Shown here one piece after another: positions 45,738 to 58,271 of a stretch of DNA of 64,000 nucleotides; the first letter of the stretch is position 1, and each line of letters starts with the position of its first letter. This DNA comes from Planctomycetota bacterium (lineage in GTDB: Bacteria > Planctomycetota > PLA2 > JAEUHO01): assembly GCA_965222115.1 (NCBI GenBank), contig CBDCTJ010000003.1:128001-192000 (forward strand). Reading direction: 5' to 3'. Position numbers and translations under genes: made by a program. The notes under the pieces were generated by a model that was not told the DNA's origin, made no database searches, and saw only the letters and a list, made by a program, of their open reading frames with translations.

Positions 45738-47090
45738 CTACCAGTCAACTTGGAAACGCATACCGAAAGCGGAGAAGTCTTCGTCGCCACCGACGCCCAC
45801 GAGGCCACCATCCTGAACGTTGCCGATGATGTAGTTGGCCATAATGCGTGCGTTCGGTGTGAGGTGCCAGTTGACGCCCAACGTGATGAGTGTCTGTTCG
45901 CCGCCAGCAACATTCCCGTCGTTGAGATCGAGAACGTCGTAACGCGCCGCAACTTCCCAGCCACCCTTGCAGCAACAATCCTCATCCAAGAAGTCGCAGC
46001 AAGGCTTTACGCGACTAAACAGTCCCTTCTTGTATTTGCGACACTCGCCCGTGAGCCAGTAGCTCGCTTGTACGTAGTAACCGCTAAAGGTTGGGTCATC
46101 TGCAAGCCCTGAGTCCACGCTGGCACTGAAGTACTCTGCCTGAACCGACCATGGGCCGTACACAAGCGCGGTTTCCAGACCCCAGACCAAGTAGTCTTCG
46201 GCATCCTCGCCGGCGACATCGCCCGGAATCGTTCCGGTATTCACCAATCGCGTGTCATCGATATGAAGACCCGGACGTGCGCGGAAGCGTACGCGAGATG
46301 TGTCATGGCGACTCGTCACCGAAGCGCCGATGTGCCACAGTTTGCAATCACATGAGCAGTCCATCCAGGGCGTGTAGCCGACGCGAGCCGTGATTCCATA
46401 GCCATCGTCTTCCCAGATGTTGGCGCCTTCGTCACCCGCAACACCAGGCGTTGCACCACCGAAGAAGCCCACGCCATAGTTCAGCTGACCACCGAGAAGT
46501 GAATCGTAGAGCATGACGCCTGCGTTGCGAGACGGTGCGAATGCGTTGGTAGACGCCGCGCGTTCCATGAAGGTGATGTACTTAGAACTTGTCTGCGCTT
46601 CCAACCCAAACGGCTCAAAAAAGTGACCGACGCGGAAGTTGGGCACGCCACATCCCCAACACTCGCGCAGGTGATTGAAGTCGATGTAGAGGTCCTTGAA
46701 CGAAACATCGCCATCGGCAAAGTCGAGCTGCGACTTAAAGCCAATGTGTTTGCTGATCTGACCAGCAAAGTAGATTCGTGCCCGACGGAACTCGACGCCG
46801 TCTTCGAGATCAATGTTCAGTGGCGGATCCTCGAGGTCATCGTCCCCGTAAAATCCAAAGTCCACCATTAGGCGTCCGCCCATCTTGAGCTTGACATCGC
46901 CTGCGTCCATGCGGATCCCGTTCTTCCAGTACACCCGGAAGTCGCCTTTTCCGCCGCCGCCATGCTCTTTCATGTACGACTTGATTTCTTCCTGAACGAT
47001 CGAGCGGACGTCGTCGTCGGCTCTTGCTTCCTGCGGCCACGCCACCAAACCGATGGTGGCGACCACGAAGCACAATGCAATTGCGCGCAT
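45738..47090 (-). CDS. OprO/OprP-type phosphate-selective porin with Cys-rich insertions
   Basis: Signal peptide; EFRRAR, GHFFEPFGLE..TSS....FMER, RFRARP, GYYVQASYWLTGE, WEVAARY, LGVNW, terminal FQVDW. Confidence 0.9.
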   Translation of the reverse strand: MRAIALCFVVATIGLVAWPQEARADDDVRSIVQEEIKSYMKEHGGGGKGDFRVYWKNGIRMDAGDVKLKMGGRLMVDFGFYGDDDLEDPPLNIDLEDGVEFRRARIYFAGQISKHIGFKSQLDFADGDVSFKDLYIDFNHLRECWGCGVPNFRVGHFFEPFGLEAQTSSKYITFMERAASTNAFAPSRNAGVMLYDSLLGGQLNYGVGFFGGATPGVAGDEGANIWEDDGYGITARVGYTPWMDCSCDCKLWHIGASVTSRHDTSRVRFRARPGLHIDDTRLVNTGTIPGDVAGEDAEDYLVWGLETALVYGPWSVQAEYFSASVDSGLADDPTFSGYYVQASYWLTGECRKYKKGLFSRVKPCCDFLDEDCCCKGGWEVAARYDVLDLNDGNVAGGEQTLITLGVNWHLTPNARIMANYIIGNVQDGGLVGVGGDEDFSAFGMRFQVDW

Positions 47091-47344
47091 AGGGACTCCC
47101 TCCTTAAGAAACGTCCTTGCGCATTCAGTCTAGGTTTTGAAAACAACTCGCCAAAAACCAAATAGACACTGAAATATGAACATTTGAAGTAGGTCGGGCG
47201 CTATGGGCCGTTGGGACCGGCGCCTACGTCCCGCTGCATTCCCGACGCCGATACGAGGTCAATGTTCAATCGGCACGGGCCATGCCGTGCGGCGTATACG
47301 GGCCATGCCGGATGGTGCACACGGGCTGCGTCCATGGTTTTGCG

Positions 47345-47388
47345 ATCTTCTCGCAGTCTTTTCACAATCTTCTCGAAATCTTCTCACA
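47345..47388. promoter_or_regulatory. Four 11-bp direct repeats, Pho-box/OmpR-family-like operator
   Basis: ATCTTCTCGCA GTCTTTTCACA ATCTTCTCGAA ATCTTCTCACA, about 255-300 bp upstream of the porin start. Confidence 0.6.
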
Positions 47389-47651
47389 ATACGTCTGCCG
47401 ACACACTACGTCCGCAAACACACTGGGAGCGAGATCCAATCGCGTCATTCGATCGTTACGCATGTAGCCCCGCGTGTTGCCCGATGAATACGCATTGGAA
47501 ACGGGGAGCATGGATACAGATTATGATTCAGCTTCGGAGAAGGATCCTGCTTCTACGCTGAACCTGAGCCGCTTGCCCTACCCAACGTCTAGGTGCTATC
47601 GCAGTTCGTCGCGGTGATACGAACGTGACAATACGGAGGGGTTGTGTCGAC

Positions 47652-49754
47652 TTAACGCTGCTCGCTCTGCGCAAGCGCTTGACGCACCGTATGGCAAACA
47701 CCGTCAACATGGAATCCGTAGTCGCGGAACAGCTCTGTGGCAGGTGCGCTCGCCCCAAATCGGTCCACACCCACAATCGCGCCGTGACGGCCCACCCAGC
47801 GATGCCAGCCAAAACTTGCGCCCGCCTCCACGGCAATGCACACATCGCAACCGCCGAATACCGCTTCGGTGTCGGATTGCGACTCGAATTGCTCCCAACA
47901 GGGCATAGACACGACACGAGCGGCAATCCCCTCCTTCTTGAGTGCTGCTGCCGCGTCGACTGCAAGGCCAACTTCGGATCCCGTGGCAATGAGTACCGCA
48001 TCGGGCCGTACGGCACCCTCGACGACGATGTAGGCGCCGTTCTCAACGCCTGCCGCGGGCGGGGTCGCGGGCGATTCAATTGGTGCTGTGCGCTGACGCG
48101 TGAGAATGAGCGCCGTAGGACCCTCGCGCTTGAGTGCCAATCGCCATGCCGCGGCGGTCTCGACCGAGTCCGCAGGCCGGACGACGTGAAGACCGGGCAT
48201 GGCACGCAAGCTGGCCACATGCTCGATGGGTTGATGGGTGGGCCCGTCCTCCCCCACGCCCAACGAGTCGTGCGTGAACACGTAAATCACTGGAAGCTTC
48301 ATGAGCGCCGCCAAACGAATGGAAGGGCGCATATAGTCGCTAAATACAAGGAACGTGCCGCCGTACGGACGGAATCCTCCATGCAGCGCCATGCCGTTGA
48401 GAACGCCGCCCATGGCGTGTTCGCGAATCCCAAAATGAATCGTGCGTCCACTGAAATCTGCGCGCGACACGTCGCCGGATCCCTTGATGGTGGTCTTGTT
48501 GGAGCCCGCGAGATCGGCGGATCCACCCACCAACGCCGGGATAACGCTACCGAGTTTGTTGAGTACACGACCCGATGAGGCGCGCGTGGCTTCTGCACCT
48601 TGCGGACCCTTCATTTCACCGGCAATGGTGTCTTCCCAGCCAGTTGGCAACTCGCCGCGAACATCGCGCAAGAATGCCTTTGCTTTGTCTGGGTTGGCCT
48701 CTGAATAGGCGGTGTACTGCTTGTCCCATGCGTCCCGCAACGCCTCGCCGCGCCGACCCATCTCATGCATATGCGCTCGAACCCGCTCGGGGACGAAGAA
48801 CGTGGCATCCTCGGGCCAGCCGAGCGCCTTCTTCGTGAGGGCAATTTCTTCTTCGCCAAGTGGGGCACCGTGGGCCGATGACGTGTCTTGCTTGTTGGGA
48901 CTCCCGTGGCCAATGTGGGTGCGGCAGATAACGAGCGTGGGTCGATCCGATGAAATCGCAGCGTCAATCGCGGCACGATACGCCGGGAGCCCTTGGTCTT
49001 CTTCATCGACCGAGGCGCTCGTTACATGCCAACCGTAGCTCTTGAATCGCGCGCCTACGTCCTCAGAGAATGACAGATCGATACCGCCATCGATGGTGAT
49101 GCGGTTGTCGTCCCAGAACACACAGAGCTTTTTTAGACGCAGATGCCCCGCAAGACTCGCTGCTTCACATGCGACGCCTTCCATCAGATCACCGTCGCTG
49201 GCAATGACCCACGTGCGGTGGTTGACAACGGCGTGCTGCTCGGTGTTGTAGCGTGACGCAAACATCTCTTCAGCGAGCGCCATGCCAACGCCATTCGCGA
49301 CTCCCTGTCCCAAGGGTCCGGTTGTGGTTTCGACACCGGGCACTTCGCGGTACTCAGGATGACCTGCGGCCGGACTATGCCGTTGCCGGAACGCTTTGAT
49401 GTCATCCAAACCAAGTTCGTAACCGGTGAGATGGAGCATGGCATACTGCAACATGCTTGCGTGCCCGCAAGACAAGATGAATCGATCGCGGTCGATCCAA
49501 TCCGGATTCGCGCTCGTGTACCGCATCCCGTATGTCCAAAGCGCATAGGCAAGCGGTGCAAGTCCCATGGGCGTTCCAGGATGCCCCGAACGCGCCGCCT
49601 GCACAGCGTCCATACTCAGACAACGAATGGTGTCGATGGTTAGGCTAGCGACATCGCGATCCTTGACGGCCCGTTCGAAACTCGACGCATCAGATGACAC
49701 CGCTGCTTCCTCCGATATCGCTGTGCTCCGCGACTGCTTTCGTCCCTGTTCCAT
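47652..49754 (-). CDS. tkt: Transketolase
   Basis: SGHPG, DRDRFILSCGH, TTGPLGQG, SDGDLMEG, GIREHAM, GEDGPTHQP. Start may be slightly downstream. Confidence 0.97.
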   Translation of the reverse strand: MEQGRKQSRSTAISEEAAVSSDASSFERAVKDRDVASLTIDTIRCLSMDAVQAARSGHPGTPMGLAPLAYALWTYGMRYTSANPDWIDRDRFILSCGHASMLQYAMLHLTGYELGLDDIKAFRQRHSPAAGHPEYREVPGVETTTGPLGQGVANGVGMALAEEMFASRYNTEQHAVVNHRTWVIASDGDLMEGVACEAASLAGHLRLKKLCVFWDDNRITIDGGIDLSFSEDVGARFKSYGWHVTSASVDEEDQGLPAYRAAIDAAISSDRPTLVICRTHIGHGSPNKQDTSSAHGAPLGEEEIALTKKALGWPEDATFFVPERVRAHMHEMGRRGEALRDAWDKQYTAYSEANPDKAKAFLRDVRGELPTGWEDTIAGEMKGPQGAEATRASSGRVLNKLGSVIPALVGGSADLAGSNKTTIKGSGDVSRADFSGRTIHFGIREHAMGGVLNGMALHGGFRPYGGTFLVFSDYMRPSIRLAALMKLPVIYVFTHDSLGVGEDGPTHQPIEHVASLRAMPGLHVVRPADSVETAAAWRLALKREGPTALILTRQRTAPIESPATPPAAGVENGAYIVVEGAVRPDAVLIATGSEVGLAVDAAAALKKEGIAARVVSMPCWEQFESQSDTEAVFGGCDVCIAVEAGASFGWHRWVGRHGAIVGVDRFGASAPATELFRDYGFHVDGVCHTVRQALAQSEQR

Positions 49755-49925: not shown

Positions 49926-49966
49926 AAAAATAAAGCTGACCCCACGCCCTAAGACGCGGGGTCAGT
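49926..49966 (-). terminator. Intrinsic terminator after the repeat lipoprotein gene, one of three consecutive hairpins in 49926-50050
   Basis: GCTGACCCC...GGGGTCAGT stem followed by TTTATTTTT on the minus strand. Confidence 0.65.
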
Positions 49967-50093: not shown

Positions 50094-51704
50094 CTAGTTG
50101 CAGGGAGAGCATAGCCCGGGGACCTCGCAGCCGGGGCTACGACGCCATTCCCAGCGGGAGGGCGCAACCATACGACGGGTCGTACGAGTCGCGTACTCGG
50201 CGGGAATCGGGATGCAACGCGTACGCGCAGGCGTAACGACGTATTGCTCAGCAACTTCGCGGTACTCAGCAGGAATGACTTCCTGGCGGCAGCTTGCGGG
50301 CTTCACCATCACACGCTCCATGACCGTCTTGTATTCGGCCGGGATCGGGATCTGGCGGGTGCTCGCGGGGCGAACGAGAACCTGCTTGGTACGTGTACCG
50401 TACTCAGCGGGAATGGTTTCCGTGCGGCAGCTTGCGGGCTTCACCATCACACGCTCCATGACCGTCTTGTATTCGGCCGGGATCGGGATCTGGCGGGTGC
50501 TCGCGGGACGAACGCAAACCTGCTTGGTGCGCGTGCCGTACTGGGCGGGAATCACTTCCGTACGGCTGCTAGCCGGGCGAATGCAATAGCGCTCCTGAAC
50601 GGTGCGATACTCGGCGGGGATGGTCTCGGTGCGGCAGCTTGCCGGACGAACCAATACGCGCTCCTGAACAGTATTGTACTGAGCGGGAATGGTCTCGGTG
50701 CGGCAGCTAGCGGGACGCACACAAACCTGACGGGTAACCGTCCGGTACTGCGGCGGGCACTGCTGAAGCTGCCAGCAATCACCACGGGTTTCGCCGGGAT
50801 TAACACCGCCACCCGTCTGGCAATCAATACGACGCCACTGGGTGGAACCGGGGCTGACCATGACCTGCTGCGACTGCGTGGTGTATTCGGCAGGAATCGG
50901 AATCTGACGAGTGCTCGCCGGACGTACGCAAACCTGCTTCGCACGCATTGTGTACTCGGCAGGAATCGGAATCTGGCGAGTGCTCGCCGGACGCACGAGA
51001 ACCTGCTTGGTACGTGTACCAAACTCAGCGGGAATCGGAATCACGCGAGTGCTCGCCGGACGAATGCAGTAGCGCTCTTCGACCGTGTTGTACTGCGCGG
51101 GAATCGTTTCGGTACGGCTGCTAGCCGGACGCACACAAACCTGCTTCGGACGCATTGCGTATTCAGCGGGGATCGGAATCTGACGAGTGCTCGCCGGACG
51201 AATGCAGTAGCGCTCTTCGACCGTCCTGTACTCGGCGGGAATCGTTTCGGTGCGGCAGCTTGCCGGACGAGCCAAAACCTGCTTCGGACGCATTGCGTAT
51301 TCAGCGGGAATCGGAATCTGGCGAGTGCTCGCCGGGCGGACCATGACGCGACGCGTACGCGTGCCCATCACAGCAGGAATCGTCTCTTGACGCTGCGAAG
51401 CTGGACGCACGCAAACCTGGACGGGAACGTCCTGATATTGCGCAGGTACCATTACGCGGCACCATGCCTCGCCGGGACGTGCTTGCGGCGGAAGGTCACC
51501 AGGACCTCCAGTTACGCCAGCAACCTGACCGACAGGCATTGTACCAACAGGCATCGCCGGACCGCACGCAGGCGGTTCGGGATCGGGAGACGGGCTCGCG
51601 TTAAGCGAGCACGTGTTGCAGGTAGGAAATAGGTCAACGCCGCAACAACCAGCGAGGACCGTGCAGAGACCCACAACGAACAAGGTGAAAATCCCTCGTC
51701 GCAT
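50094..51704 (-). CDS. Cys-rich lipoprotein with 18 x 23-aa PAxY...PAS repeats (69-bp DNA period)
   Basis: GAGGAGG RBS, lipobox VLAGC, 9 repeats + C-x14-C loop + 9 repeats. Confidence 0.88.
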   Translation of the reverse strand: MRRGIFTLFVVGLCTVLAGCCGVDLFPTCNTCSLNASPSPDPEPPACGPAMPVGTMPVGQVAGVTGGPGDLPPQARPGEAWCRVMVPAQYQDVPVQVCVRPASQRQETIPAVMGTRTRRVMVRPASTRQIPIPAEYAMRPKQVLARPASCRTETIPAEYRTVEERYCIRPASTRQIPIPAEYAMRPKQVCVRPASSRTETIPAQYNTVEERYCIRPASTRVIPIPAEFGTRTKQVLVRPASTRQIPIPAEYTMRAKQVCVRPASTRQIPIPAEYTTQSQQVMVSPGSTQWRRIDCQTGGGVNPGETRGDCWQLQQCPPQYRTVTRQVCVRPASCRTETIPAQYNTVQERVLVRPASCRTETIPAEYRTVQERYCIRPASSRTEVIPAQYGTRTKQVCVRPASTRQIPIPAEYKTVMERVMVKPASCRTETIPAEYGTRTKQVLVRPASTRQIPIPAEYKTVMERVMVKPASCRQEVIPAEYREVAEQYVVTPARTRCIPIPAEYATRTTRRMVAPSRWEWRRSPGCEVPGLCSPCN

Positions 51705-52295
51705 GTTCCCTCCTCATAGGAAGTATGAAAAAACCAAACGCCCGGAAGATCTGAACCCAACCCACAGGTTGCGAACCAAACCCACGCTCCGACACGCGCC
51801 GAAGCATCCCAACCGAGACGTTTTTCGAAAACTTGCCTCTGACGCTTCGACGCGAGCCGTCGCGAATCAGAAACTTCATCCGTCGCAAAACGGATTGGAC
51901 TGCCAGCCACCGAGACGCTCGATTCACGAGCCCCGGTAACCCTGCCGCCCTCCTTCGTCGCCACAGTGTAGGGTACGTCTTGACAGACGCACACCTTTAC
52001 TCATGGAAACCAGTAGAAGATTCAAGCCCACGTAAGGCCGAAATCAATGGTCGGAAAGCCAAACAAGCAGGCTTCTCGGACGAATTCAGGATCGCCGCGT
52101 CTCCAAAATAAAGCCGCGGCGAAGCCCGTCAGATCGGTCGCTCAGGAGTGAGACTTGAGGGTCTCCAACGGGGCTGTCACCGCTGTGTCATCGACTGCAA
52201 TGTCTTTGCGCTGTTCGTGCGTTCTTGTAGTACTCGGATACGGTCTTCGGCGCCCCAATGCGAGGCATCAATTCGGCCCGGGCGAAGGAGTCCAC

Positions 52296-52562
52296 GTGGA
52301 ACAGATAGCCATTCGCCTCACACAGAACGACACGTGGACGTACCTCGCGGGGGATTCGGATGCGAAGAAGGATCTCGAGGTCGTCGTGCGCGCCTTTGAC
52401 CACGATGCGCTAGCACGAACAGGCGCGTCTCAGACCGCACCTGATGGCGAGGAAGTGCTCGTGCCCGTGGGGCAAGGTCGCCGCCTGATCGGTAAACACT
52501 TCTTCGCCAGGCCCGCTGGAAAACACCGCCGCTGTTTGATTTCTTATCGCGGCATTGAGTAG
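52296..52562 (+). CDS. Small hypothetical protein (88 aa)
   Basis: AAGGAG RBS before GTG 52296, in frame with ORF 52155..52562; precedes the efflux operon. Confidence 0.6.
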   Translation: MEQIAIRLTQNDTWTYLAGDSDAKKDLEVVVRAFDHDALARTGASQTAPDGEEVLVPVGQGRRLIGKHFFARPAGKHRRCLISYRGIE

Positions 52563-52623
52563 TCCGTCCCCGCGTACCGATTCGACACACTAGGGAGACC
52601 TGCCTCCCTACGGAGTCGGTGCT

Positions 52624-54369
52624 GTGCGAAGTCTCCCCTTGCCCGAGTGTTTGCGCGGGTTACTTGTTGCGTTGCTCGCCACCGGTTCATGGGGTTGCCA
52701 GGCGTGGACACCCGCGGCCGCCGATCGCGATGTGTATGGATTGCTTCACCATGCGCGCCAACAGGTACCGGACGTTGCGGGATCGCTGGCGCTGGATCAA
52801 GCGGAACGCGAGGCACGGCCGTATCGCAAAACCTGTGCGCAGCACGTAACGTTGGCGGAAGCGCTGGTTCTTGCCACCAAATCGTCGCGAACGTATCGCA
52901 ATGAACGCGAGTCGGTCTATCTCGCAGCGCTCAATCTGACGCTCGAGCAGAACGCGTTTCGTAAGCAACGATCCGGAAGCGCTTCTCTTGGCCTCGACAT
53001 CGACGAATCAGGTGAAACGCTTGAGGGGGAAGCGCAGTTCGGAGCGAGCAAACGTTGGTCAAATGGCGCGAGCGCAAGCTTCACGAGTCTTACCGACTTC
53101 GTTAAGCAGTTGGCAGAGAACCCCTTAAGCGCCGCACAGATGGTTCTCAATGCCAACTTTACGCTCCCCTTGCTTCGGGGTTCAAGCAAACTGGTGGTGC
53201 GCGAGCCACTCACGCAGGCCGAGCACGAGTTGCTCTACGCGCTTCGTGACTACGCGCGATTTCAGCAAACCTTCACGGTAGATGTTGCGACGCAGTATTA
53301 CCGCATCTTGCAACTCAAAGACATTGCTCGCAATGAGCGCGCATCAGAAGAACGACTTCGACGCTTGGTGGAAGTGCAGACCGACAAAGCAAAAGCGGGT
53401 CGCATTGCACCGTTCCAAGTGGACCAAGCCCGGCAGGACGTTCTACGCGCGCAGGATCGCGTGCAGCGCGCCGACGCCGATTTTCAAAACGCATTGGACG
53501 CGTTCAAGCTCGAGTTGTCCCTGCCGATTTGCGCCAAGCTCGAACTTGACCACAACGAACTTGCCCAGTTGCGTTCACGCGGGTTGCAAGACGCCCCCAT
53601 GCCGCAGCGACGCGCCATTCCCTTGGCATGTCACCATCGATTGGACTTACGGAACGAGCGCAACCGTACGCGCGACGCAAAGCGACAAATCCTCGTCGCA
53701 CGTGACGCGATTCGCGGGCAGTTGGACATTTCGCTTGGACCGCGCCTGGCCACGCCGGATCGCCAACCTTTCAATCTGTTGAATCTCAGTCCGTCGGCAC
53801 TGTTGGGTTTGGAGCTCGACTTGCCCTTGGAACGCACGCAGGAGCGCAACGCATGGCGCCGCGCGTGCCTCGCGGCGGTTCGCGCACGTAGAAGCGAAGA
53901 GCGCCTCAGTGACCAAGTCGTCCTGCAAGTACGTGAGGCCTATCGCCGCATTGAGCGCGCGCGTCGAAGTTTCGATATCCAGAAGGAAGGTGTTGAGGTT
54001 GCCGAACGACGCGTGGAAAGCACAGAGATGCACTTGGAACGTGGCACGGCATCGATTCGCGACCGGCTCGAAGCCGAGGCGTCGTTGGTCCAGGCGCGCA
54101 ATGCGCTAACAAGTGCCCTCGTCGATCACGCATCGATTCGGCTATCGCTCTTGCGCGACATTGGTATCTTGCGTGTGGACGCTGCAGGCCGTTGGGAACA
54201 CGTTCCCCCACCGATCGATGCCCCTGCGGCGGATTCGAAGCAACCCGCGCCAATCGTTCGAAGTGCCGATGTGCCCAATCTCGATGGTGCGCCCTCGCAA
54301 GCACGAGCCCCCCGCTCCGTGCATAGCGAAGGTGATCCCGAAGCGTCATTGGGCACGGCTCGCCGGTAG
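52624..54369 (+). CDS. TolC-family outer membrane efflux lipoprotein
   Basis: Lipobox-like SWGC, TLAEALVLA, LPLLRG, helical OEP repeats; first large gene of the efflux operon. Confidence 0.85.
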   Translation: MRSLPLPECLRGLLVALLATGSWGCQAWTPAAADRDVYGLLHHARQQVPDVAGSLALDQAEREARPYRKTCAQHVTLAEALVLATKSSRTYRNERESVYLAALNLTLEQNAFRKQRSGSASLGLDIDESGETLEGEAQFGASKRWSNGASASFTSLTDFVKQLAENPLSAAQMVLNANFTLPLLRGSSKLVVREPLTQAEHELLYALRDYARFQQTFTVDVATQYYRILQLKDIARNERASEERLRRLVEVQTDKAKAGRIAPFQVDQARQDVLRAQDRVQRADADFQNALDAFKLELSLPICAKLELDHNELAQLRSRGLQDAPMPQRRAIPLACHHRLDLRNERNRTRDAKRQILVARDAIRGQLDISLGPRLATPDRQPFNLLNLSPSALLGLELDLPLERTQERNAWRRACLAAVRARRSEERLSDQVVLQVREAYRRIERARRSFDIQKEGVEVAERRVESTEMHLERGTASIRDRLEAEASLVQARNALTSALVDHASIRLSLLRDIGILRVDAAGRWEHVPPPIDAPAADSKQPAPIVRSADVPNLDGAPSQARAPRSVHSEGDPEASLGTARR

Positions 54370-54372
54370 AGT

Positions 54373-56274
54373 GTGGGGATGCCGCCCTCGTTTCCTTATC
54401 GCTTCGCCCACGCACCCCATCGTTCCGGTCCCCCACGCCGTTCGCACACGACGTGGTTGACGTCTGAATATGGTGGCGCTCGACTGGGCCTCTTGGCACT
54501 CGCACTTTTGGCCGGATGTGGATTTGGCGCATGGTGGCTCATGCGTGACGGCACGGCTGCCGAACGGTCCACGTTGTCGTTCACGCCACCGATCGCGCCG
54601 CGCGCGGTAACACTCAACGTGATTGAAAGTGGCAGCCTCGAAGCGTTGAAGTTTCACCGCGTAACCAGCGAAGTGGAGTCGCGCGTTGAAGTGACCTATA
54701 TCGCGCCCGAGGGCAAGATCATTACCGACGAAGACGTACGCAACAAGGTTGTGCTTGTGCGACTCGATGGTTCGACCATTGAAGAAAAGTTACTCGCTCA
54801 AGAGAGCAACGTCATCACTGCCCAAGCAAACTACGACAATGCGATCGCGAGTCGCGATATACAAGTTCAACAGAACGCCAGCGACATTCGCAAGGCGCGC
54901 CTGGATGTTCGTTTCGCACGATTGGACGTCGAGCGCTACGTGGGTACAGCGGCCTGGGAAGACCTTTCCGCGATCCAGGAAATGTCGAAGACCACCGACG
55001 GCGACACATCCACCAAAGGCAATGTGTCTACGGCAAGCGAAAACCTCTTGTCCGCAATCGAGGGGTTGTTGAGTCGCAAGGAACTTGATGGCGAAGCACT
55101 GCAGAAGACGCGCGAACTCGACAGCGCGATTTCACTTGCCCAAGAAGAACACTCCCGCGCCGATGACAAACTCAAGTACTCGGAACGCTTGGAAAAGAAG
55201 GGCTTCATTAGCCGTGATGAACTCCAGGCCGACCGGCTTGCCTTACAGCGTCGGGCGATTGAGTTGGAGTCGGCCAAGACCGCGCGCAATCAGTTCGTAC
55301 GCTACGACTTTCCGAAAGAAGTCGAGCAGTTGCTATCGGATGTATCCGCGGCCGAGGACGCCTTGGCACGCGCCATCGCGAAAGCCAAGTCCGCACGTCG
55401 TCGCGTGGAAGCCGACGTGCAAAACGATCTCACACAGGTCAAGCAACAGACGCGGCGGCGGGATCGCTTCAAGCAGCAACTTGAGCATTGCGAGATTCGG
55501 GCGACCAAGCCGGGGCTTGTGGTGTATGCCAGCAGCGGCAGGGGGCGATGGGGACGCGACGAAGACGAGATTCGAGAAGGCGCCACCGTGCGTCATCGGC
55601 AGACGTTGATTCGCATTCCTGACCCCAAGCGAATGGGCGTTGAAACCACGGTGCACGAAACCGTCGTGGATCGCGTCAAAGTCGGACAACGGGCTTTCGT
55701 CGTGGTCGATGCCGATCCCAATACGCGCCTGAACGCAAGAGTCATCAAAGTGGCGCGTATGCCCAAGCCACCGAACCGGTGGATCAACCCCGATTTGAAA
55801 GTGTATGAAACCACGCTGGAACTCGAGGGCACGCACCCCGAGCTAAAACCTGGCATGAGCGTACAAGTTGAGATTGTGACGCGCACGTTGGACGAGGTGC
55901 TTGCGATTCCAATTCAGTGCCTTGCAGGGCCTGTTGAAACGCCACATGTATATGTTCGACGTACGGACGCCGACGGGCACGAAGCGACGAAGAAGCAACC
56001 CGTTACGCCAGGGCCAACGACCGAGCATCTCGTTGTGATTGAGAGCGGATTGCAGTCGGGGCAACAGGTGTTGCTCAATCCGCCAGAAGAGAAGGCCGAA
56101 GAAAAGAACGTGAATTCGGATAGGCGCGACGCACGACCGCGAGGCGATGGTAAGCGTGCGAACGAAAAGGGGCCCGGCGCCAATACGTCGGGCTCCAGTA
56201 GGCATATGCCGCGAAAGAAGTCCACGCCCGGCGAAACGTCTGGCAAAGGCAAGCCCGCCCGGACGCGGGAGTAG
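54373..56274 (+). CDS. Membrane fusion protein (HlyD/MacA-like) with very long coiled coil
   Basis: TM anchor, ESGSLEA lipoyl half, IRATKPGLVVY, LKPGMS, GL.SG..V. Start uncertain. Confidence 0.88.
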   Translation: MGMPPSFPYRFAHAPHRSGPPRRSHTTWLTSEYGGARLGLLALALLAGCGFGAWWLMRDGTAAERSTLSFTPPIAPRAVTLNVIESGSLEALKFHRVTSEVESRVEVTYIAPEGKIITDEDVRNKVVLVRLDGSTIEEKLLAQESNVITAQANYDNAIASRDIQVQQNASDIRKARLDVRFARLDVERYVGTAAWEDLSAIQEMSKTTDGDTSTKGNVSTASENLLSAIEGLLSRKELDGEALQKTRELDSAISLAQEEHSRADDKLKYSERLEKKGFISRDELQADRLALQRRAIELESAKTARNQFVRYDFPKEVEQLLSDVSAAEDALARAIAKAKSARRRVEADVQNDLTQVKQQTRRRDRFKQQLEHCEIRATKPGLVVYASSGRGRWGRDEDEIREGATVRHRQTLIRIPDPKRMGVETTVHETVVDRVKVGQRAFVVVDADPNTRLNARVIKVARMPKPPNRWINPDLKVYETTLELEGTHPELKPGMSVQVEIVTRTLDEVLAIPIQCLAGPVETPHVYVRRTDADGHEATKKQPVTPGPTTEHLVVIESGLQSGQQVLLNPPEEKAEEKNVNSDRRDARPRGDGKRANEKGPGANTSGSSRHMPRKKSTPGETSGKGKPARTRE

Positions 56275-56283
56275 TTCCCACAC

Positions 56284-57003
56284 ATGGCGGAAACGTCGCT
56301 ACCGATTGCGCCCGCCACGACCGACGTGGTTGCACTTGTGGATGCCCGTCGCACCTATGCAATGGGTGACAGCGAAGTACACGCACTCGATGGCGTCAAT
56401 CTGACCGTGCCACCAGGCGAGTACCTCGCCATTATGGGACAGTCCGGATCCGGCAAGAGCACCATGCTCAACATTCTTGGTTGTTTGGATCGACTGACAA
56501 GCGGGCACTATCGTTTGGATGGCAACGACGTGAGCGCGCTCGACGACAGCAGTCTGTCGCGTATGCGCAATCGACGGCTCGGTTTCGTATTTCAGTCCTA
56601 CAACTTAATCCCTCACCTAACGGTTCTCGAAAACATCGAAGTCCCTATGGAATACGCGGCCGTATCACGCAGTGCCGCCCGTGCACGCGCGATCGAACTC
56701 GCCACCCGCATGGGACTCGATCAACGCATGCGTCACCGCCCCACCGAACTCTCGGGCGGCCAGCAACAGCGTGTGGCCATTGCCCGTGCCCTGGCGAACG
56801 CACCGTCGGTGATCCTTGCCGATGAACCCACCGGCAACCTGGACTCCGCCACAGGCCGCGAAATTTTGAATCTACTCGATGACTTGAGTACGGCGGGCAA
56901 CACGCTGATCGTTGTGACGCACGATCCAAGTGTGGCGGCCCACGCACACCGCACCATTCACATGCTCGACGGGCGCATCGACCGCGAAGAGAGGCGTTCA
57001 TGA
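56284..57003 (+). CDS. ABC transporter ATPase (MacB/LolD type)
   Basis: [29 protein letters not shown]. Confidence 0.95.
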
Positions 57004-58271
57004 GACTCGGGCGACTGTTTCGCTTGGCGTGCAAGAGCCTGTGGCTGCACCGCTTGCGCTCACTACTCACGGTGTTGGGCATTGTCTTCGGCGTGGGCAG
57101 CGTCGTCGCCATGTTGGCCATCGGCGAGGGCGCCAGCCAAGAGGCACAAGAACAGATTCGCCGCATGGGCAGTCGCAACATATTGCTTGCATCGGTACCG
57201 CCTCCCGATGAAGGCGACGCGTCGCAGGAGAACTCGCGAGTAAGTGCGTATGGACTGCTGCAGAGTGATCTGGAGGGCATGCGCGAGACCATTCAGGGCA
57301 TTCGGCGCTTTGTGCCACGGCGCGACATCCCCTCCGAGGCGCGCTACGGGCGTCGAAAGTTCAATACGGTCATCATGGGCACCACCCATGACTACGTAGA
57401 ACTCGCCAACCTCCAATTGGCGACCGGACGCTTTCTCAATGCCCGTGATGCTGCCTATCGCGCCTCCGTGTGCGTGTTGGGAGCCAGCGTGCGCGACGCA
57501 TTGTTCAAGAACATCGATCCCGTGGGACTTCAGCTTCGTATCGGTCGCAACAGTTTTCGAATTGTGGGTACGCTTGAAACGCGCGGCGAAGGGACCGGCG
57601 CCACGGCGGGCTACGGCGGCGAGTCGGATGCGGCCGTGTTCATTCCATTGGAGACCATGAAGCGGCGCTACGGCCAAGTCATTCGACACAACTCAAGCGG
57701 AAGTTGGACGCGCGAACGCATCGAATTGCATCGCATCACCGTTGAATCCGAAAGTGACCACGAGGATGACATTGCCCGCACCGCGGCAGCGCTTCGACAT
57801 TTCCTCAAAGGTCGTCATCCGAAGAACGATGTGCGCGTCACCGTTCCGCAAGAACTGCTGCGACAAGCGCGTGAAACGAAACGGCGCTTCACGATTATCT
57901 TGGGTTCCATCGCTGCCATCTCGTTGCTCGTGGGTGGGATCGGCATTATGAACATCATGCTCGCCACCGTGGTTGAACGAACACGCGAAGTGGGTGTGCG
58001 GCGAGCGCTCGGTGCGCGACGAAGTCACATTATTGCGCAATTCCTCTCTGAAACGGTGTTGCTCTCCATTGGCGGCGGCCTGCTTGGATTGGCGCTGGGG
58101 GTTGCACTACCCAAACTCGTCACCAAGTTCTTTCACATGGCCACCGTTGTGGATCCCCGCTTCCTCATTCTTGCTTTCGGCATTTCGGCGCTCGTGGGCT
58201 TGGTCTTCGGTATGTATCCGGCAATTCGCGCGGCGGACTTGGATCCCGTGGAAGCGTTGCGACACGAGTAG
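57000..58271 (+). CDS. ABC permease (MacB/FtsX type)
   Basis: RSLLTVLGI, SLLVGGIGIMNIML..V.ERTRE.G.R.ALGA, DPVEALRHE. Confidence 0.95.
   Translation: MRLGRLFRLACKSLWLHRLRSLLTVLGIVFGVGSVVAMLAIGEGASQEAQEQIRRMGSRNILLASVPPPDEGDASQENSRVSAYGLLQSDLEGMRETIQGIRRFVPRRDIPSEARYGRRKFNTVIMGTTHDYVELANLQLATGRFLNARDAAYRASVCVLGASVRDALFKNIDPVGLQLRIGRNSFRIVGTLETRGEGTGATAGYGGESDAAVFIPLETMKRRYGQVIRHNSSGSWTRERIELHRITVESESDHEDDIARTAAALRHFLKGRHPKNDVRVTVPQELLRQARETKRRFTIILGSIAAISLLVGGIGIMNIMLATVVERTREVGVRRALGARRSHIIAQFLSETVLLSIGGGLLGLALGVALPKLVTKFFHMATVVDPRFLILAFGISALVGLVFGMYPAIRAADLDPVEALRHE

Follow-up and report, generated by a model that had tools for sequence, protein, structure and literature searches.

A planctomycete lipoprotein with two mirrored repeat arms, predicted to pair as one very long antiparallel beta-hairpin

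How is a protein folded whose chain consists of two equal arms of 23-residue repeats on either side of a short loop, and what could such a protein do in the cell envelope? This question is raised by a gene in a 64,000-nucleotide stretch of DNA (the window) from a Planctomycetota bacterium (GenBank assembly GCA_965222115.1, contig CBDCTJ010000003.1, positions 128,001 to 192,000), which encodes a predicted lipoprotein of 536 residues, hereafter the query. An earlier note, made from the sequence alone, had proposed that the two arms carry a self-complementary code and zip together into a rod. The analysis presented here favours, with a probability of about 0.7, a lipid-anchored envelope protein whose mature part would form one continuous, very long antiparallel beta-hairpin that projects as a rod. 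The evidence comes from the repeats of the query, from the pairing rules found across its relatives and from structure prediction.

Repeat arms and their complementary code

Parsing with regular expressions and a hidden Markov model (HMM) placed the starts of the 23-residue units at aa 87, 110 ... 271 in the N arm (N1-N9) and at aa 317, 340 ... 501 in the C arm (C1-C9), reproducing the earlier count of nine plus nine units around a 14-residue loop flanked by cysteines. Sixteen units are full and two are partial, all at an exact 23-residue period, and the ninth unit of each arm merges into a cap containing Trp, Arg and Cys. The units follow the plan P-A-x-Y, a 10-residue strand, P-A-S and a 6-residue strand. 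The centre reads W-R-R-I-D-C, 14 residues and C-W, with Cys295 and Cys310 bracketing the loop. The protein is strongly basic (27 Cys, 65 Pro, 63 Arg, 10 Lys, 35 Glu and 6 Asp). Scans of the query against Pfam and NCBIfam returned sub-threshold chance matches only, with no model covering the repeats. There is no further domain beyond the C cap and, as the earlier note had stated, no peptidoglycan-binding (PG-binding) domain, PF01471 and PF00691 giving no match at E <= 10.

In bacterial lipoproteins (Lol/Lgt substrates), the signal peptide is followed by a lipobox of the form [LVI][ASTVI][GAS]C. By this rule, read directly on the sequence, the query is a predicted bacterial lipoprotein with putative lipidation at Cys20 of an L-A-G-C motif, which agrees with the lipid anchor read from the sequence before. 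In the structure predicted by AlphaFold2 (AF2), a hydrophobic helix (aa 5-17) lies ahead of this cysteine.

Each repeat contains a long (L) and a short (S) segment, and both had been described as occurring in two variants that are opposite between the arms. We typed them by fixed rules: a K/R or a V/I/L/M residue at position 7 of the repeat decided the type of the L segment, and Pro22 or an acidic residue at position 21 that of the S segment. The N arm then reads VRRVRVRR? for L and EIEIEIII for S, and the C arm VVVRVRVVR for L and EEEIEIEI for S. In the mirror register, where L_i faces L'_(10-i) and S_i faces S'_(9-i), 8/8 L pairs and 8/8 S pairs are opposite, exactly as claimed. The 13 other registers and orientations that were tested are all worse, the nearest rival being parallel shift 0 with 7/8 for L and 2/8 for S. 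Because the L string is nearly palindromic, the L code alone barely tells the orientation, and only the S string settles it. When the antiparallel register is slipped by one repeat, only 2-3 of 7-8 L pairs remain opposite.

The permutation test of repeat order proposed in the earlier note is only moderately significant: on shuffling C1-C8, 16/16 is reached at P = 0.0059, and after collapsing two recent double-unit duplications the score is 12/12 at P = 0.033. An alternating string is, in addition, automatically its own anti-complement. Taken alone, the query is suggestive but not decisive.

These duplications are visible in the DNA. In the N arm, N3 and N5 share 62/69 nt and N4 and N6 share 61/69 nt; in the C arm, C4 and C6 share 61/69 nt and C5 and C7 share 65/69 nt. 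The duplicated blocks are exact mirror partners, N3N4/N5N6 facing C7C6/C5C4. The earlier statement that simple tandem duplication does not explain the repeat order thus needs to be narrowed: each arm does contain a two-repeat duplication, and what tandem duplication leaves unexplained is their mirror partnership. Separately, N7 (51036-51104) and C6 (50415-50483) have 61/69 nt in common, which is as close as the duplicates within an arm, and this suggests copying or gene conversion between the arms.

Arm equality and charge covariation across the family

Judged by its sequence matches, the query clearly belongs to a large family whose database labels refer to its PG-binding domain alone. A word-indexed search found 4068 of 8000 scored candidates at E <= 1e-3 (best 4e-91), and an exhaustive search of 1.84 billion cluster representatives found 1682 at E <= 1e-3 and 132 at E <= 1e-30, with an identity never exceeding 52%. 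Among the best 120 matches listed, 116 carry PF01471 (PG_binding_1), one carries only PF00691 (OmpA) and three carry neither; a C-terminal PG-binding domain is common in the family, not universal, and is lacking in the query. The C termini of the relatives carry PG_binding_1, OmpA or DUF11. Pfam scans of relatives recovered PG_binding_1 only, or DUF11 in one paralogue of the same genome, and left the repeats uncovered, while the matches of a 4+4 profile in a sequence search of the PDB were confined to the PG_binding_1 part. An exact look-up in a collection of 15 billion proteins did not contain the query sequence itself.

The unnamed homologues labelled 'peptidoglycan-binding' or 'OmpA-like' share with the query the 23-residue repeat, the equal arms, a G-E-C N cap, the central Trp cap with its loop and a W..C motif in the C cap. 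The query differs in being the longest parsed two-arm form (9+9), in having many more cysteines and in lacking a PG-binding domain. Its code is thoroughly mixed, whereas in the unnamed homologues the N arm is acidic and the C arm basic. At E <= 1e-10, the Cys-rich, domain-less form occurs in 24/24 other genomes of the window's taxonomic family, often at several loci each, versus 0/16 of the more distant genomes sampled elsewhere in the phylum. Named relatives come from metagenome-assembled genomes (MAGs) of Planctomycetales and Planctomycetota.

An HMM built from the 16 full repeats of the query was used to parse 264 database proteins and the open reading frames (ORFs) of 36 fetched loci. Arms were equal in 102 of the 123 two-arm parses, with sizes of 3+3 (n = 28), 4+4 (n = 51), 5+5 (n = 15), 6+6 (n = 6), 7+7 (n = 1) and 9+9 (n = 1). 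On inspection, the 21 unequal parses comprised 2 wrong-frame ORFs, 7 truncated proteins or fragments, 11 cases in which the parser had missed degenerate repeats and 1 real exception, the only one among complete proteins. The equality of the arms, which the earlier note had named as a check on its proposal, is accordingly a rule of the family. The caps are also linked: the N-cap Cys and the C-cap W..C are both present in the query; among the equal-arm proteins they are both present in 95/102, both absent in 4 and single in 3.

Arm length appears to have changed in both arms together. In the 5+5, 6+6 and 7+7 relatives, near-identical and recently expanded N-arm repeats face near-identical C-arm repeats, and such mirror-placed expansions were seen in at least 5 lineages. 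Equal arms from 3+3 to 9+9 and recent duplications at mirror positions support the co-expansion of the arms that had been proposed for the query.

The complementarity seen in the query extends to its homologues. At position 9, the N arm as a rule carries an acidic residue and the C arm a basic one. We found 61 distinct position-9 charge patterns, and of the 28 that discriminate orientation, 26 fit antiparallel pairing better and 2 parallel pairing. Independent antiparallel patterns include abaaaa/bbbbab in a 6+6 protein, abaaaaa/bbbbbab (7+7), abbbb/aaaab (5+5), and abaa/bbab and baaa/bbba (4+4).

Charge covariation was measured on 406 non-redundant L pairs (N_i with C_(n+1-i)), with the query excluded. 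In the mirror register, r was -0.70 at positions (9,9'), -0.57 at (3,14') and -0.62 at (14,3'), followed by -0.46 at (5,13'), -0.29 at (13,5'), -0.41 at (8,8') and -0.36 at (7,9'). Parallel pairing would predict correlation between equal positions, and at (3,3), (14,14), (5,5) and (13,13) r was about 0. Antiparallel shifts of one or two repeats gave r between +0.18 and -0.26, and shifted or parallel registers mostly stayed at |r| < 0.3. The exceptions were parallel shift -2 (-0.58 at (9,9') and -0.42 at (7,9')) and, at (14,3'), parallel shifts +1 (-0.35) and +2 (-0.48). The values at shift -2 may stem from overlap with the mirror register in 3+3 proteins.

For the S segments, only the pairing of S_i with S'_(n-i) gave a signal, with r of -0.46 at (18,20'), -0.37 at (21,19') and -0.35 at (16,22'). 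The net charge of positions 18-22 correlated at -0.53 in the hairpin register versus -0.07 to -0.13 in five others. Pro22/Pro22 pairs are depleted, with 4/305 overall and, in the planctomycete loci, 0/67 versus 10 of 92-93 in other registers. Charges that compensate along an anti-diagonal, with L and S offset by exactly one half-repeat, correspond to the geometry of a single long hairpin.

Predicted structure, proposed architecture and its alternatives

The query was modelled with AF2 from a 141-row alignment (predicted local distance difference test, pLDDT, 64.2; predicted template-modelling score, pTM, 0.28), and the 4+4 homologue P0126, which has caps and a lipobox as in the query, from a 47-row alignment (pLDDT 71.1, pTM 0.43). 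In both models, the L segments all form strands of 12 residues and the S segments strands of 7, and the only breaks are at the two-residue Pro-Ala. The strand limits are mirrored about the loop (i+j = 338 in P0126 and 603 in the query), and the confidence profile of P0126 shows the same symmetry. In the register read from the DSSP strings, position 3 faces 14', in agreement with the terminal pairs that covary most strongly; for the central pairs (9,9'; 5,13') it is off by one, as a bulge next to the conserved Tyr4 might explain. In the query, the Cys/Pro-rich linker ahead of the arms has pLDDT <50 at aa 20-39 and 46-62. A complex prediction of the P0126 N arm (aa 56-164) with its C arm (aa 174-282) gave a score of 0.11 and a mark of 0.32, its controls not having been folded, and weighs neither for nor against the pairing. 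A disulfide staple between the N cap and the C cap might exist: the two cysteines co-occur, but they lie about 5 residues apart in the DSSP-string register of P0126.

Foldseek found 0 matches in the PDB at E <= 1e-3. The top weak matches were the phi29 tail, lysenin, aerolysin, epsilon-toxin and protective-antigen pores, chains that contain very long beta-hairpin stems; such matches would fit an extended hairpin and not a compact solenoid. A test for a beta-solenoid, in which position i would stack on i plus the period, showed no charge-covariation signal in neighbouring registers, and no solenoid was among the Foldseek matches.

Considering these data together, we propose that the chain would run out through the nine N-arm repeats, turn in the 14-residue loop, probably closed by a Cys295-Cys310 disulfide, and return through the nine C-arm repeats. 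The L strand of N_i would lie against the L strand of C_(10-i), and the S strand of N_i against that of C_(9-i). As both arms are built of the same repeat, some positions would face their own counterparts (9/9' and 8/8'), alongside 3/14' and, in the S strand, 18-21/19-22'. Self-facing rungs can form ion pairs only with opposite residues, and the repeat would therefore split into two complementary types, V7/E9 against R7/K9 in L and acidic against Ile-Pro in S. In most relatives, the solution would be to have all acidic repeats in the N arm and all basic ones in the C arm; in the planctomycete group the types are intermixed, in the query more than in any other member. With mixed types, a slipped register would set like beside like, which could help a 9+9 hairpin to find its register. 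The stronger form of this idea in the earlier note, that the code sets the register, is left unproven by the family, since most homologues have homogeneous arms (aaaa/bbbb) that are complementary in every register.

The same geometry would account for the way the arms grow: if they must stay equal, a tandem duplication in one arm would be kept only together with a duplication of the partner segment in the other. The Pro-Ala pairs would act as edge-blocking kinks that probably keep the ribbon from aggregating, edge-blocking being one form of negative design in beta-sheets. In the hairpin register, each of the 16 arm cysteines lies opposite a residue other than cysteine. They may be free or intermolecular and could cross-link to neighbours; their lack of partners fits the suggestion that the protein is cross-linkable through its many cysteines, although it is not evidence of cross-links.

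The base of the rod would carry the lipid anchor and the tip the loop, making it a rigid envelope projection or strut. A structural role in the envelope is suggested by the lipobox, by the PG_binding_1, OmpA or DUF11 domains of the relatives and by the Cys-rich composition. Because the two ends of a hairpin lie side by side, the N-terminal anchor would sit next to the C terminus, and the rod would be a projection rather than a spacer from anchor to wall; the earlier idea of an envelope tether or molecular ruler would not survive in its simple form. Each arm spans 214 residues (strands aa 80 to 293), and the rod length of about 70 nm given in the earlier note stands as an upper bound for a straight ribbon, which coiling, kinks or lateral assembly could shorten. 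Of the two-stranded antiparallel beta-ribbon proposed there, the pairing of the arms is supported by covariation and the strands by the all-beta AF2 models, while the two-stranded geometry and its straightness are what we infer from them.

Several observations weigh against this architecture. The statistics of the query alone are modest (P 0.006 to 0.03), and its near-palindromic L code also gives 7/8 in parallel. The confidence of the AF2 models is moderate (pTM 0.43 and 0.28), with pLDDT <50 at aa 162-217 and 387-441 of the query, stretches whose low values we attribute to alignment gaps left by shorter homologues; the repeat period by itself would already make the strand limits mirror-symmetric. 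Some charge patterns are imperfect, namely abb/abb (P0154 and L002, the latter in the query's own genome), abab/bbbb (P0261) and bba/bab (P0196), and the two patterns that score better in parallel do so by one. Kinship among the sequences inflates the correlations, and register controls mitigate this without removing it. The real exception to arm equality, L010 (G021:C35:10504-14115), is a complete protein from a MAG with 4+6 arms, and may represent a collapsed assembly of near-identical repeats or a natural mismatch. In the same genus, L008 has 6+6 arms with three near-identical N-arm repeats. Finally, we know of no solved isolated two-stranded ribbon with more than 200 residues per strand, and the rod may therefore need partners or may coil.

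That last point bears on two unlikely alternatives in which the arms still pair. The arms might pair between molecules, giving domain-swapped dimers, open-ended fibres or sheets, and so a wall fibre or lattice in place of a monomeric rod. Covariation and arm equality fit intra- and intermolecular pairing alike, both edges of the ribbon are free, the arm cysteines are partnerless in the hairpin register, and very long isolated two-stranded ribbons have no known solved precedent. The loop, though, is short and conserved and, in the planctomycete group, bracketed by two cysteines, which favours an intramolecular turn; the AF2 monomer models put all segments in strands without a second chain, and the regularly placed Pro-Ala kinks resemble a negative-design feature that would hinder association at the edges. 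Slightly less probable still, in our view, is that hairpins assemble into a multi-stranded tube or barrel, or that the ribbon coils into a superhelix, so that the structure would be shorter or thicker than a 70 nm ribbon. The best, non-significant, Foldseek matches are hairpin stems that exist only in oligomeric barrels, and a straight rod of 35 nm, as in the common 4+4 PG-binding forms, would exceed the usual width of the periplasm, which hints at coiling or an in-plane orientation. Yet barrel-type alternation of hydrophobic and hydrophilic residues is missing, both faces being mixed; there is no next-neighbour covariation, as the values for antiparallel shifts of one or two repeats indicate; and the low pTM fits an elongated model.

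Local folding, with a beta-meander or solenoid of repeats, no long-range pairing and a complementarity that is a by-product of the two-repeat duplications, appears improbable to us. It can draw on the tandem double-unit duplications in both arms, on the self-complementarity of an even alternating string and on the P of 0.03 that the query retains once its duplicates are collapsed. What it leaves unexplained are the equal arms from 3+3 to 9+9, the 26/28 antiparallel patterns, the charge correlation in the mirror register obtained with the query excluded, and the mirror-placed expansions in at least 5 lineages.

Genomic context, comparable systems and implications

The features of the gene are collected in Table 1. 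Both the strong ribosome-binding site and the gene's own terminator reported in the earlier note were found again, the terminator-like hairpin lying about 130 nt 3' of the stop codon.

Table 1. Coordinates of the lipoprotein gene, its signals and the segments of its product (window positions)
Feature	Position	Strand	Details
Whole ORF	50094..51704	-	1611 nt; 536 aa + stop
Shine-Dalgarno GAGGAGGG	51708..51715	-	3 nt 5' of ATG
Intrinsic terminator-like hairpin	49926..49965	-	13 pairs (9 GC) + T-run
Signal peptide and lipobox L-A-G-C	51645..51704	-	aa 1-20; Cys20 predicted to be lipidated
Cys/Pro-rich linker	51480..51644	-	aa 21-75; low confidence
N cap	51447..51479	-	aa 76-86; motif G-E-A-W-C; 7-residue strand that would face the C cap
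N arm, N1-N9	50853..51446	-	aa 87-284
Centre	50757..50852	-	aa 285-316; Trp cap strand, Cys295, 14-residue loop, Cys310-Trp, C-arm start strand
C arm, C1-C9	50163..50756	-	aa 317-514
C cap and short Cys-rich tail	50097..50162	-	aa 515-536; motif R-W-E-W-R-R ... C; Cys526
Recent N-arm tandem duplication, N3N4 and N5N6	51033..51308	-	aa 133-224
Recent C-arm tandem duplication, C4C5 and C6C7	50274..50549	-	aa 386-477

The gene looks monocistronic, because the roughly 900 bp between it and the divergent TolC-like gene (window 51705-52623) contain no convincing ORF. Between 49700 and 52700, no promoter of the sigma-70-like type was detected. Genes for a transketolase and a homologue of phosphate-selective porin O/P follow downstream (45738-49754, also on the minus strand), and the divergent operon-like set (52624-58271, plus strand) encodes an outer-membrane efflux protein (OEP; TolC-like), an HlyD-family adaptor, an ABC ATPase and a MacB-like permease. 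No functional tie between these neighbours and the lipoprotein gene is apparent. An opposite-strand ORF of 462 aa (50244-51632, plus strand) was rejected as a real gene since the minus-strand product has thousands of homologues, a lipobox, a ribosome-binding site and a terminator; the 462-aa frame probably stays open simply because the sequence is periodic and GC-rich. Contigs assembled from the short reads of public runs (X1-X4) tile the repeat region without mismatch, indel or joint. They break inside the repeats and none spans them, so the 9+9 copy number rests on the assembly.

The same genome encodes at least 2 shorter 3+3 paralogues, L002 (G000:C7:1082041-1085337) and L005 (G000:C7:2614267-2618013). 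One ends in a long Pro/Ala-rich acidic C-terminal tail and the other in a C-terminal DUF11, Pfam having been run on L005 only; a similar C-terminal extension occurs in a sub-group of relatives (L023, L032, L033, L034 and L037). A further locus in this genome, L003 (G000:C7:33719-36928), is an open frame of 1008 aa that matches 79 residues of the query at 69% identity. Cys-Pro linkers like that of the query recur in relatives, and in L007, L009, L011, L015 and L020-L024, repeated Cys-x-Pro-Cys and Asn-Pro-Cys linkers run from the lipobox to the rod. The PG-binding homologues of about 800 aa, such as P0003 and P0006, have a large N-terminal domain and a non-repeat insert after the third C-arm repeat, which in P0006 adds about 94 residues beyond the normal repeat spacing; these long forms have 10 repeats versus 3+7, with the insert within the C arm. 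Outside the phylum, three loci from Zhongshania (Gammaproteobacteria; L040-L042) match nearly the full length of the query at 34-35% identity.

Elongated repeat proteins of the envelope are known from other bacteria. The G5-E rods of SasG and Aap in staphylococci, like the proposed rod, are envelope-attached beta-sheet structures of tandem repeats that lack a classical hydrophobic core and whose length is given by the number of repeats. They differ from the query in being three-stranded single-layer sheets that run from N to C with their termini at opposite ends, in being sortase-anchored in Gram-positive bacteria, and in having neither paired arms nor a complementary code. The antiparallel coiled-coil arms of SMC/Rad50 and colicin Ia resemble it in their out-and-back chain, equal halves, complementary registers and termini opposite the loop or hinge end, but they pack as alpha-helical heptads, as opposed to the predicted beta-ribbon with cross-strand ion pairs. 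With Lpp and the Pal/OmpA tethers, the query has in common an N-terminal lipobox and an envelope location, its relatives carry a PG-binding module, and a rod could set a spacing. Lpp, however, is a trimeric helical coiled coil with its anchor and its PG link at opposite ends, whereas the hairpin would have both at one end. The pore stems of aerolysin-type and binary toxins, like the proposed rod, are very long two-stranded antiparallel hairpins; they are amphipathic, occur only inside oligomeric barrels and show no sequence relation to the query (Foldseek E >1e-3, template-modelling score of about 0.1).

Other Cys-rich envelope proteins gave no better match. The YTV proteins (PF07639), described as cysteine-rich cell-wall proteins of Planctomycetales (PMC8567305), are like the query Cys-rich envelope proteins of planctomycetes. 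The Pfam YTV model did not match the query at E <= 10, and no YTV match was found in the window's genome, which is weak evidence of absence as the control genomes gave none either. A feature search of the Atlas returned weak leads only, an unnamed cluster at 0.87 and a YTV cluster at 0.76, and no model of the query was present there. The model of the chlamydial OMP6 (PF03504) scored 10.5 bits (E = 0.77), below its cut-off of 34.1.

A search of article full text found no description of the 23-residue repeat or of hairpin rods with paired arms, which does not prove that there is none. Although tandem-repeat envelope rods are already known, there is a substantial chance of a new architecture here. 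Put specifically, an autonomous rod made of one two-stranded beta-hairpin, with 80 to >200 residues per strand, would owe its register and stability to opposite charges at self-facing positions, would change in length by mirrored duplications and would serve as a widespread periplasmic strut; that this whole description applies and is new we rate slightly below an even chance. In that case, it would be a beta-sheet counterpart of the antiparallel coiled-coil arms, present in thousands of envelope proteins from several phyla, and the planctomycete 9+9 form would be the extreme case, perhaps one that suits the wide periplasm of planctomycetes.

If the hairpin reading is correct, a defined structural module would take the place of a very common region of 'peptidoglycan-binding' and OmpA-like lipoproteins that now lacks annotation. 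Its design rule would be simple and open to testing, combining mirror complementarity of charges, arms of equal length and Pro-Ala breaks at the edges. It would also provide a natural case of length evolution by compensatory duplication in the two halves of one chain, and a beta-sheet rod tunable by repeat number would be of interest for periplasmic spacing and struts as well as for protein design. The PG-binding relatives would have to be pictured anew, with both the lipid anchor and the domain that binds PG at the base, from which the rod would project. For the planctomycetes, whose envelope is unusual and rich in protein, the query and its relatives would be candidate structural elements of that envelope.

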